A DNA stretch of 64,000 bases, from NCBI RefSeq assembly GCF_003790525.1, contig NZ_CP033635.1. The stretch is one strand, 5' to 3'. The notes beneath the pieces were generated by a model that was given only the letters and a program-made list of their open reading frames with translations, was not told the DNA's origin and did no database searches. Origin of the DNA: Escherichia coli (lineage in GTDB: Bacteria > Pseudomonadota > Gammaproteobacteria > Enterobacterales > Enterobacteriaceae). Of this stretch, positions 4,659 through 14,855 are shown piece by piece. Position numbers and translations under genes: made by a program. The number at the start of each line of letters is the position of its first letter. Within the stretch, counting starts at the first letter, position 1.

Positions 4659-5122
4659 TGATCGATGTTCGAATTATTCCCGCTACCGAAGAGCATCTTC
4701 AGATGATTTTGCCGGATGTTCGTCAGGCTGATATTGACGAACTGTATGCGGTATCGCTGATGACTACCGAAGATGCGCTGCGCGTTGGTCTGCGCACTGC
4801 GACTATGGCCTGGTCAGGGTTCGCGAACGGAGAACTGGTAACCATGTTTGGTGTATCTCCGGCGTCAATGATCGGTGGCAATGGTACACCCTGGCTGGTC
4901 GGGACCAGCCGTATTGAAAAATATCAGAAGACATTTCTGCGCCACTGCCGCCCTGTATTGCAGCAGATGCTGGCAGTTTATCCGCGCCTGGAAAACTACG
5001 TCGACGAGCGAAACTATGTTGCCAAAGCATGGCTGCACTGGCTTGGATTCAGGCTTGAAGAGGCCGCGCCTTATGGTGCTCTTGGTCTTAATTTCCACAG
5101 ATTTCACATGGAGAGAAAATAA
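4658..5122 (+). CDS. Internal virion protein (gp13-like position)
   Basis: 154 aa; gene order only. Confidence 0.45.
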   Translation: MIDVRIIPATEEHLQMILPDVRQADIDELYAVSLMTTEDALRVGLRTATMAWSGFANGELVTMFGVSPASMIGGNGTPWLVGTSRIEKYQKTFLRHCRPVLQQMLAVYPRLENYVDERNYVAKAWLHWLGFRLEEAAPYGALGLNFHRFHMERK

Positions 5123-12468: not shown

Positions 12469-12882
12469 ATGAAGGAATTATTGCTGTTATCGGTATTTTT
12501 GATATCCGCTTGCTCGACATCCTATGATGTTTATGACGGTGTTGATAAGGCATATTGCGACAAAGTTAAAATGGATTTTTCTCTTGCCAAGACGGCGAAG
12601 GATAGTTGTATTGATCACTACGTCAAGACTTATACCAAGCCAGCCTCATCGGCATCTGATATTGCTGAAGGTGCTGTGTTTGAGTGTAACAAGGTGATAT
12701 CCATCGCAGCGAGTTCTTCATACGATGCTGCTGTATGTGCAATGGCTGAAAGAAACGGCATGTCAGTGCAAAAAATTAATAGCATGATAAGCAGTAATGA
12801 CGAAGCCAAAATAAGAACTGATATCAGCTCGGTGAAAAAAGATGCCATGAACAGAGTTGTAAAATATCAGTCATCTTTATAA
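12469..12882 (+). CDS. Prophage lipoprotein (signal peptide with lipobox L-I-S-A-C), 137 aa, AT-rich gene
   Basis: N-terminus MKELLLLSVFLISAC read directly; AAGGA RBS; sits at the start of the accessory island. Confidence 0.65.
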   Translation: MKELLLLSVFLISACSTSYDVYDGVDKAYCDKVKMDFSLAKTAKDSCIDHYVKTYTKPASSASDIAEGAVFECNKVISIAASSSYDAAVCAMAERNGMSVQKINSMISSNDEAKIRTDISSVKKDAMNRVVKYQSSL

Positions 12883-12897
12883 GTCGTGACATGTCAC

Positions 12898-12922
12898 AGG
12901 CCGCTTTCGCGGCCTTGTTTTT
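12898..12922 (+). terminator. Intrinsic terminator of the structural operon / lipoprotein gene
   Basis: AGGCCGC-TTTC-GCGGCCT hairpin followed by TGTTTTT. Confidence 0.6.
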
Positions 12923-13082
12923 AACGAATGCCACCGCCACCCGGGCGGGAATCCGCAGAACGCCCACCGCAGCGGGAGCCGTCAGCAGCAGTGTCGCTGT
13001 CGTGCTGACAACGACCGGCAAAGGCCTGAGTTGAAGCTACCAGAGACAACAAAACGAACAGTGCAGCAAATGCTTTTTTCAT
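12921..13082 (-). CDS. Candidate small secreted peptide (53 aa, Sec signal MKKAFAALFVLLSLVASTQAFA, two Cys)
   Basis: Internal ATG of the 77-aa ORF; convincing signal peptide but weak RBS; possible TTGACG / TATAGA promoter just upstream. Confidence 0.3.
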   Translation of the reverse strand: MKKAFAALFVLLSLVASTQAFAGRCQHDSDTAADGSRCGGRSADSRPGGGGIR

Positions 13083-13154
13083 TGTGAAATTTCCATCTAT
13101 AAGCCACCTCAATGTGGCGTCAATGAGTGTAGCACTGACTTTTGTTTCGCCCAC

Positions 13155-13176
13155 AAAAAAGCCCGCAGCGCGGGCT
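13155..13176 (-). terminator. Intrinsic terminator of the cargo operon
   Basis: AGCCCGC-GCU-GCGGGCU hairpin followed by six U on the - strand; overlaps the stop codon at 13175. Confidence 0.6.
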
Positions 13177-13615
13177 ATTCTTCTTCATCATTAAAAAGCG
13201 GATTGTTGTTTCCATCTGATGAAAGGAAAGGTATGTGTTCTCTTGAAAATCCAACAATGACAATTTCATTATCATTTTTTGCATAATGAATGCATTCATT
13301 AGAATGCCTTCCGCCAGGGTTGAAATTTAAGTTAATGGTATAATTCTTAAATGTGTTTGGATACCATGTTGGCCCACAATGATAATGCCAATAATTCTCT
13401 TGCTCATAATTGTCTGAGCCGGGAATTTTATCATGGTTATCATCAACCCACGAGGGCTTGTTTTTTCCAACAAGCGCCCTTCCATTGGCAACATCCTCTA
13501 AAAAACTTTGTATGATTTTTATTTCATCATCAGTAAGGAAAGGTCCGTCTACAGCGAAAGGGGTGTTGCTTTCCCCATGTAGAAAACTATTAGATATTCT
13601 AATGTTAAACTTCAA
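13175..13615 (-). CDS. Hypothetical cargo protein, about 146 aa, low GC, Asn-rich, no recognised domain
   Basis: Probable TTG start at 13615 with AGGAG RBS 6 nt upstream, 20 nt after the stop of the 55-aa ORF; ORF track shows a longer frame from 13756 that overlaps the upstream gene. Confidence 0.5.
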   Translation of the reverse strand: MKFNIRISNSFLHGESNTPFAVDGPFLTDDEIKIIQSFLEDVANGRALVGKNKPSWVDDNHDKIPGSDNYEQENYWHYHCGPTWYPNTFKNYTINLNFNPGGRHSNECIHYAKNDNEIVIVGFSREHIPFLSSDGNNNPLFNDEEE

Positions 13616-13635
13616 GGAAAACTCCTGATGTGCTT

Positions 13636-13803
13636 CTATTTGGAGCGAAATGCCGCCTTGAAGTCGCTGAAAGATGTTCCTGTCTGGTAAACCATATCCT
13701 TGTCGCGCTCTTTGCTTGCGCGGCCAAGCATAACTTTTCCAATGACATCCCAGCATTGCTTGGCTTGTTCATTGTGCTGAGTACGATTTTTCAACGCTGT
13801 CAT
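13636..13803 (-). CDS. Small protein (55 aa), first gene of the cargo operon; possible regulator or antitoxin-like partner
   Basis: ATG with AGGAGG RBS 6 nt upstream, placed immediately downstream of promoter P_A; translated by hand. Confidence 0.5.
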   Translation of the reverse strand: MTALKNRTQHNEQAKQCWDVIGKVMLGRASKERDKDMVYQTGTSFSDFKAAFRSK

Positions 13804-14589: not shown

Positions 14590-14742
14590 AGTGATCACCT
14601 TTGTAGTTAGGTTAATCACCACTACCGACGCCAATCGGTTGGTGGTGAACTGTGCAGGGTTGGCGTAACCGGCTACAAAGGACCCGGCGCACCTTTCGGT
14701 GCCCCCACACAGCCCACCATAGAATAGGTGCGCTTTACACAT

Positions 14743-14761
14743 AAAAAAACCGCTTATGCGG
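14743..14761 (-). terminator. Short intrinsic terminator or attenuator in the leader of the antirepressor-like gene (CCGC-AUAA-GCGG followed by seven U)
   Basis: Read on the - strand; stem is only 4-5 bp, so call is tentative. Confidence 0.4.
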
Positions 14762-14855
14762 CATATGTGCCTCTGTAGTAACCCGGGACGCCAATCCCGG
14801 CACTGGATTTTGCCAGTGCCCGATTACTATGGCACAAGAGGAGTGCGATGTAAAT

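Follow-up and report, generated by a model that had tools for sequence, protein, structure and literature searches.

A conserved 53-codon gene of an epsilon15/phiV10-like Escherichia coli prophage is probably a moron that encodes a small exported mini-domain peptide

We analysed a window of 64,000 nucleotides from Escherichia coli (NCBI RefSeq assembly GCF_003790525.1, contig NZ_CP033635.1) and propose, with a probability of roughly 0.75, that a 53-codon frame on its minus strand is a real, self-contained gene of the moron type in an epsilon15/phiV10-like prophage, with a promoter of its own and a product that would be exported as a mini-domain peptide of 31 residues. The frame starts with ATG at 13082 and ends with TAA at 12923-12921, and its extent (12921..13082, minus strand, stop included) is supported by an ORF scan, a PGAP CDS, a PHROG match and purifying selection. 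The 53-aa product, MKKAFAALFVLLSLVASTQAFAGRCQHDSDTAADGSRCGGRSADSRPGGGGIR, divides into a predicted signal peptide (residues 1-22; 13082..13017, minus strand) and a predicted mature peptide, GRCQHDSDTAADGSRCGGRSADSRPGGGGIR (residues 23-53; 13016..12924, minus strand), whose 31 residues include 8 Gly, 5 Arg and 2 Cys (C25 and C38). A sequence-only reading of this DNA had described the frame, its Sec-type signal with an AxA site and a 31-residue Gly/Arg-rich remainder with two cysteines, all of which are present as described, and had placed it next to the terminator of the structural operon, from whose hairpin at 12898-12915 the stop codon is indeed only 5 nt away.

The gene is already annotated in RefSeq and in PHROGs and is thus not a new gene call. 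RefSeq protein WP_000708858.1, a PGAP 'hypothetical protein', is the identical product at the same coordinates in annotated genomes, and PHROG 14503 ('membrane associated protein', moron category) matches residues 1-53 of 53 with E=2.3e-40; comparison with these two entries revealed no sequence difference. Close relatives are named 'transmembrane anchored protein' in other sources, and both names are automatic annotations. What makes the locus of interest is not the gene call but the very strong purifying selection on a 31-residue peptide, its spread as an autonomous unit among unrelated phages and small plasmids, and its membership of a widespread mini-domain that lacks a Pfam-A model.

Length alone does not make the frame significant, because 48 ORFs of at least 30 aa lie in the 4.5 kb around it. 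It stands above this chance background because of its dN/dS, its intactness in an unbiased sample and the PGAP call of the same CDS. Homologues with 68-98% identity were found in Shigella, Klebsiella, Citrobacter, Cronobacter, Franconibacter, Salmonella, Pectobacterium, Dickeya and Rahnella, and share the nearly invariant core C-x-H-D-x-D-T-A-A-D-G-S-R-C-G-G-R-S-A-D-S-R-P-G-G. A codon-by-codon comparison of the 25-codon mature core across eight diverged loci gave pS values of 0.41-1.0, at which synonymous sites are saturated, and pN values of 0-0.16, with codon switches that include AGC<->TCN for Ser and CGN<->AGA for Arg; between the Pectobacterium and Dickeya loci (L085 and L090) the core differs by 15 synonymous and 0 non-synonymous changes. 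The signal-peptide region of the same eight loci has a pN of 0.1-0.5 with its hydrophobicity kept.

The first set of related loci held only 100%-identical proteins, a selection bias for which its all-synonymous pattern was not used as evidence; all 20 variable sites among these alleles, chosen as they were for protein identity, are third codon positions. A second sample was anchored on the downstream terminator sequence only and was chosen without reference to the ORF, yielding 116 usable loci. The ORF is present in 80 of these, intact in 79 (36 distinct DNA alleles) and disrupted in one, and its segregating changes comprise 39 synonymous and 11 non-synonymous differences against 41.7 and 117.3 available sites, respectively (binomial p=3e-14). 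Disruption of the frame in close relatives had been named beforehand as an outcome that would overturn the reading, and this test fails to refute it.

A chance frame in a non-coding region, either a terminator-flanking spacer or a small RNA, would be in keeping with the weak Shine-Dalgarno sequence, the lack of a called consensus promoter and the many spurious ORFs of similar size nearby. We give this explanation next to no credence, given the saturation of synonymous sites with an unchanged peptide across genera, the 39 to 11 ratio in the unbiased sample, the restriction of indels between homologues to whole codons and, within the set selected for protein identity, the third-position changes; nor does any Rfam family match the ORF or its leader. 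The Shine-Dalgarno sequences of diverged homologues are canonical (AGGAGG, GAGGA, GAGGT, AAGGA) despite unrelated upstream DNA. Within the reach of comparative sequence analysis, the chance-ORF explanation is refuted, and the substitution patterns indicate that the frame is a genuine protein-coding gene, for which a weak Shine-Dalgarno sequence and a non-consensus promoter are no bar here. The earlier description of a small Sec-exported peptide of uncertain coding status is supported by purifying selection in frame, by an AxA-G type cleavage site in 53 of 53 family members and by the ribosome-binding sites of the diverged homologues. We also considered a 77-aa long form with a GTG start at 13154, which lies behind calls of PHROG 3117, and rejected it; its additional codons would overlap the promoter and leader, and diverged homologues lack them, having a Shine-Dalgarno sequence of their own directly before the MKK start.

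The DNA upstream of the start codon is conserved over its last ~70 nt whatever gene lies further upstream, and it contains what appear to be the elements of an independent transcription unit. A probable -10 element, TACACT (13131..13126), is preceded by TG (13134..13133) to give an extended -10 at 13126..13134 on the minus strand, and the first T, the A and the final T of the hexamer (TAnnnT) are invariant in 20 of 20 diverse leaders. A weak -35-like hexamer, TGGGCG (13148..13153, minus strand; TGGACG or TGGATA in relatives), can be read 16 nt upstream of it and is a putative element. The consensus promoter scan called no promoter on the minus strand. The sequence-only reading had suggested TTGACG as a -35 element, and the hexamer does exist at 13123..13118 (minus strand) with TATAGA 16 nt downstream. 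As a promoter this pair was rejected: TTGACG is not kept in relatives and sits between the conserved -10 and the leader hairpin, downstream of the former, which places the promoter further upstream, where it is probably the one with the TACACT hexamer.

The predicted 5'-UTR hairpin (13103..13118, minus strand) is formed by GCCAC (13118..13114) and GTGGC (13107..13103) around the loop ATTGAG. RNAalifold predicts the same five pairs from the aligned leaders, with compensatory changes in three of the five, and none of 500 shuffles reached the observed covariation score; sliding the partner strands lowered pairing from 86% to 25-58%. The hairpin is followed by a leader box identified in the leader alignment, CTTATAGATGG (13083..13102, minus strand; CTACACAYGG in relatives), whose GG is kept in at least 90% of leaders. 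It includes the Shine-Dalgarno GGA at 13094..13092, in agreement with the weak ribosome-binding site noted before. Rfam searches returned no family for the leader or the ORF and only a chance-level Trp_leader match (E=0.42) further upstream. In this lineage the leader also holds a five-codon upstream ORF, ATGGAAATTTCACAATGA (13080-13098, minus strand), whose stop overlaps the main start (ATGA); other lineages lack this ATG or have it in a different register (ACACGG, ATACGG), and the ORF is probably incidental.

Both ends of the unit lie at terminators. Downstream, a GC-rich hairpin at 12898..12915, found by the terminator scan, is common to the two convergent units. On the plus strand it forms the full intrinsic terminator of the structural operon, and on the peptide strand it is a 3' hairpin without a U-tract; in diverged homologues the stop codon is followed by a different hairpin, in some cases with a T-run behind it. 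Upstream, the intrinsic terminator of the preceding minus-strand gene (13160..13176, minus strand) marks the high-coordinate edge of the cassette, as judged from the terminator scan and from breaks in homology. These breaks between related loci fall at 12884-12886 (60 loci) and at 13160-13198 (72 loci). At the low-coordinate edge a perfect 12-bp palindrome, GTGACATGTCAC (12886..12897), unique in the window, lies between the stop of a 137-aa lipoprotein gene and the shared terminator, at the homology break. The palindrome is exact in the Cronobacter version of the locus and has one mismatch in that of Klebsiella (GTGACATGTCAT), and it may serve to bind a protein or mark a boundary of recombination.

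The surrounding DNA is a prophage of the epsilon15/phiV10-like (Uetakevirus) group, with phiv142-3 and HEMP4 as the best phage matches (99.5-99.6% identity), followed by TL-2011b and phiV10, and the ~316-bp segment that contains the gene is present in about 540 complete E. coli genomes. Within this setting the ORF differs in composition, with a GC content of 55-58% vs 33-45% in its flanks. Among 80 viral loci with 23 distinct peptides, roughly 70 copies occupy the same slot in a Uetakevirus-type gene arrangement, behind the BRO-N/antirepressor gene and convergent on the gene of an 824-aa virion protein; in E. coli types a YafO toxin gene, a DUF4760 gene or, as here, a 146-aa ORF is inserted between the antirepressor and peptide genes. 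Copies also occur in unrelated contexts. Those of Pectobacterium and Dickeya belong to unrelated phages and lie beside a MuF/polyvalent protein gene, another E. coli phage has the gene behind a RelB/YafQ module, a Rahnella megaplasmid carries it in a prophage-like region, and on a lambdoid contig it comes third in a cI-Rap1a-peptide operon (8-nt gap), an arrangement that implies lysogenic expression. On mobilisable plasmids of 3.1-3.4 kb in Salmonella and Klebsiella it is the only annotated non-mobilisation gene, with no partner ORF evident. From the conserved upstream elements and the cI operon, respectively, we infer that the gene has its own promoter and is expressed in lysogens.

The peptide gene is dispensable, being absent from 36 of the 116 terminator-anchored loci. 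In some of these loci (such as L102 and L117) all that is left of it is a 3' piece of ~20 or ~42 nt joined to the preceding gene or the terminator, and such deletion scars argue that the gene was lost rather than never present.

Morons are self-contained promoter-ORF-terminator units, such as bor and lom of lambda and gp15 of HK97. The peptide unit resembles them in being a small independent unit between modules, bounded by terminators, on the strand opposite the late operon and of atypical GC content, and in being present or absent among close relatives and common to unrelated phages. Presence and absence among similar phages, sharing with unrelated phages and atypical composition are thus all observed, as are, with regard to an own promoter and terminator, a -10 conserved in 20 of 20 leaders, the leader hairpin and the flanking hairpins, set against a consensus scan that calls no promoter. 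It differs from these systems in that the peptide is unrelated to any characterised moron protein and that in many relatives the unit lies directly behind the antirepressor gene, which suggests a long-standing resident and not a recent insertion.

The N-terminal segment has the layout of a Sec signal peptide, with a basic n-region (MKK), a 13-residue hydrophobic core (AFAALFVLLSLVA) and a c-region (STQAFA) that places AFA at -3 to -1. Among 53 family members, position -3 is A in 38, S in 9 and V in 6, position -1 is A in 51, S in 1 and V in 1, and position +1 is G in 52 and A in 1, so that the signal peptidase I rule of small residues at -3 and -1 is kept while the rest of the segment drifts. 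We infer Sec export with cleavage by signal peptidase I after Ala22. The first cysteine lies in A-G-[RN]-C, or in AGSGRC in Pectobacterium and Dickeya; a lipobox ([LVI][ASTVI][GAS]C) does not allow Arg or Asn at -1, which excludes a lipoprotein processed by signal peptidase II. Both cysteines are kept without exception in sets of 88 and 145 domain sequences, and C25 and C38 most likely form a periplasmic disulfide.

The main rival to a released peptide is an uncleaved signal-anchor, which would keep the small product in the inner membrane with its 31 C-terminal residues in the periplasm, working like MgrB-type modulators of membrane sensors or transporters. It would suit the names 'transmembrane anchored protein' and 'membrane associated protein', the hydrophobic stretch of ~19 residues that results if STQAFA is counted (residues 4-22) and the many domain-family relatives that tether the domain through a membrane or lipoprotein anchor. 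Yet the names are automatic annotations, the strictly hydrophobic core spans only 13 residues, and a near-perfect signal peptidase I site is retained in 53 of 53 members while other residues drift. We therefore regard the anchored form as unlikely and favour the cleaved, exported peptide.

The mature part is, by profile searches, a free-standing copy of a widespread mini-domain without a Pfam-A model. A profile of the mature part, searched against 1.84 billion representatives with a cut-off of E<=1e-3, matched 187 protein clusters (50% identity), members of which include a Rhizobium protein, and tblastn added a match in a Caballeronia plasmid. The Cys-bracketed domain is ~28 residues long, G-N-C-x4-[DQ]-x-A-x-D-G-S-R-C-G-x-R-[SA]-A-x2-R-P-G-G, and can be summarised by the pattern C-x12-C-G-x-R-[SA]-A-x2-R-P-G-G; a four-Cys subfamily reads GNCPCPYN-x-A-x-NGSRCGGRSAYSRPGG-x2-P-x-CY. 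Considering all retrieved proteins, the close family included, 150 of 207 domain copies form the very C-terminus of their proteins, which are 36-372 aa long; other copies directly follow a signal peptide, and a few are in tandem. One hydrophobic segment precedes the domain in 93 of 140 family proteins, which predicts an extracytoplasmic location, and two segments precede it in 29, in which the domain would be cytoplasmic if both were to span the inner membrane. About a fifth of the mini-domain proteins (P0060-P0062, P0066, P0104, P0113 and others) combine a lipoprotein or signal sequence with an Ala/Gly/Val-rich hydrophobic segment before the C-terminal domain. Partner domains are rare and of cell-envelope type, namely SH3b, PG_binding_1 and _2, secretin N-domain and NucA/NucB DNase. 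A longer lipoprotein of the family is encoded in a lambdoid prophage between Q and the holin gene on the opposite strand, a position typical of morons. Where it belongs to a larger protein, the domain has the look of a module for anchoring or binding, joined to parts that vary.

Searches of Pfam-A, NCBIfam, PADLOC and PDB gave no match for the peptide or the domain. AF2 modelling was poor with the close-family alignment (pLDDT 61) and became moderately confident when 88 diverse domain sequences were used (pLDDT 75, with 80-85 for the first 20 residues), still showing no recognisable fold, and a Foldseek search of the AF2 model returned no structural neighbour.

Our best guess at function, held tentatively, is an envelope-acting lysogenic-conversion factor. 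Transcription would start at the gene's own sigma-70-type promoter (-10 TACACT) and produce a short leader that begins with the conserved hairpin, followed by translation of the 53-aa preprotein. Residues 1-22 would act as the Sec signal peptide and be cut off by signal peptidase I after AFA, releasing a hydrophilic peptide of 31 residues into the periplasm, where a C25-C38 disulfide would close a 12-residue loop. The free binding module may then occupy a conserved envelope ligand or host protein, and the lysogen or plasmid host might gain from this by, for instance, superinfection exclusion or a defence against envelope-targeting attack. The guess of a binding module is made because mobile elements carry the domain alone, without partners, and larger proteins use it as a module. 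It is conceivable, if rather speculative, that phages of several types and small plasmids spread this minimal mini-domain as a self-contained unit since it binds and masks a conserved envelope target and so shields the carrier, by exclusion or immunity, from incoming phages, colicins or other attack on the envelope. If the proposal is true, the peptide would be among the smallest periplasmic conversion factors known, and its target, if found, could point to a new and highly compact means by which mobile elements alter the Gram-negative envelope.

A small, Gly-rich peptide with a leader and two cysteines, possibly disulfide-linked, could also be a secreted weapon or signal, that is, a Sec-dependent bacteriocin or microcin or an arbitrium-like communication peptide. 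Its position as sole cargo of small ColE1-like mobilisable plasmids would fit this as well, for such plasmids often carry bacteriocins. The genetic context speaks otherwise: no immunity, exporter or receptor gene lies alongside in any context examined, and a solitary gene without partners argues against a toxin, a bacteriocin or a signalling pair. Compared with class II microcins, the peptide has a Sec-type signal in place of a double-glycine leader, which would deliver it to the periplasm only, and neither the 3.1-3.4 kb plasmids nor the phage loci carry partner ORFs. Compared with arbitrium, there is no neighbour gene conserved across contexts, and the mature sequence, with its nearly invariant core, is almost identical across unrelated phages and plasmids, whereas arbitrium peptides vary by phage. 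We consider a weapon or signal very improbable, and the bacteriocin and communication-peptide readings are essentially excluded.

The closest functional analogy is Spackle of phage T4, a small phage-encoded protein with a Sec signal that acts in periplasmic or envelope exclusion. The likeness is one of functional analogy only and consists in phage origin, a Sec signal and a predicted periplasmic action in the infected or lysogenic cell; the two differ in that they share no sequence similarity and that the 31-aa peptide, which is absent from PADLOC, is much smaller than mature Spackle. The only Spackle match in the region, on the neighbouring lipoprotein, is meaningless (E=0.82). The mini-domain also resembles the extracellular calcium-binding domain Excalibur (PF05901), likewise a short extracytoplasmic module bracketed by Cys, in which an Asp/Gly-rich loop ends in ...DG-x-x-C. 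Excalibur either stands alone behind a signal peptide or is linked to secreted nucleases and SH3b domains, and the mini-domain is similarly joined to nuclease and SH3b domains. The two differ in spacing (D-x-A-A-DGSRCG here vs DxDxDGxxCE) and in the GxR[SA]AxxRPGG tail, which has no counterpart in Excalibur, and the Excalibur HMM matched neither the peptide nor 10 diverse domain copies at E<=10. We also likened CQHD of the peptide to what we take to be the loop CKPHDC of the lysozyme inhibitor Ivy, and DGSRC...RPGG to what is presumably the TolB box of colicin E9, DGSGW...PWGG; both were set aside as leads only, because the spacing differs and the domain family at large does not keep the His.

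A search of a literature library found no paper there that pairs 'transmembrane anchored protein' with 'phage' and none with the first motif strings, and the shorter motif strings matched only an unrelated lung-cancer paper. Phage phiv142-3, which is 99.6% identical to the prophage at the peptide locus, has been studied for its upstream gene orf10 and its tail fibre gene orf6 (PMC7724020). In that study orf10 is reported to raise serum resistance and capsule gene expression, its partial deletion to reduce serum resistance, and the peptide gene, Orf11 of phiv142-3, is outside the list of genes significantly up-regulated in serum (PMC7724020). The gene directly upstream of the peptide unit in the window (13175-13756, minus strand) corresponds to orf10, for which models differ between a 52-aa fragment (GenBank Orf10), 146 aa (PGAP, 13175-13615) and 193 aa (the longest ORF here), which makes it uncertain which of them underlies the published phenotype.

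Further upstream, 14638-14832 (minus strand) matches the Rfam families C4 antisense RNA (79.5 bits), isrK (74.7 bits) and c4 a1/b1 target (44.1 bits), just upstream of the BRO-N/antirepressor gene and overlapping its start, a sign that the prophage has an immI module of the P1/P7 type for antirepressor control. Regulation of the peptide leader by the nearby C4 or isrK RNAs was rejected, as their duplex energies are no better than those of shuffled sequences (268/300 and 170/300 as good, respectively). On the other side of the cassette, the last gene of the structural operon (12469-12882, plus strand) encodes the 137-aa lipoprotein, which is Cys-rich, has the lipobox ISAC and belongs to PHROG 8691. 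It is distantly related (25% identity over 72 aa) to a 134-aa Klebsiella protein in the same place, whose gene adjoins a Rap1a-family T6SS-immunity gene. A functional link between the peptide and Rap1a genes is no more than a hint, since these are adjacent or near in two contexts but not in most others. In the Dickeya locus L090 a second small secreted peptide gene (4677-4835, plus strand) lies 165 nt upstream of the peptide homologue and encodes 52 aa with a predicted signal peptide followed by a His/Gly-rich part, KGGHYPGGHGSSHKGGKYHNPRTGNHYEKRH.
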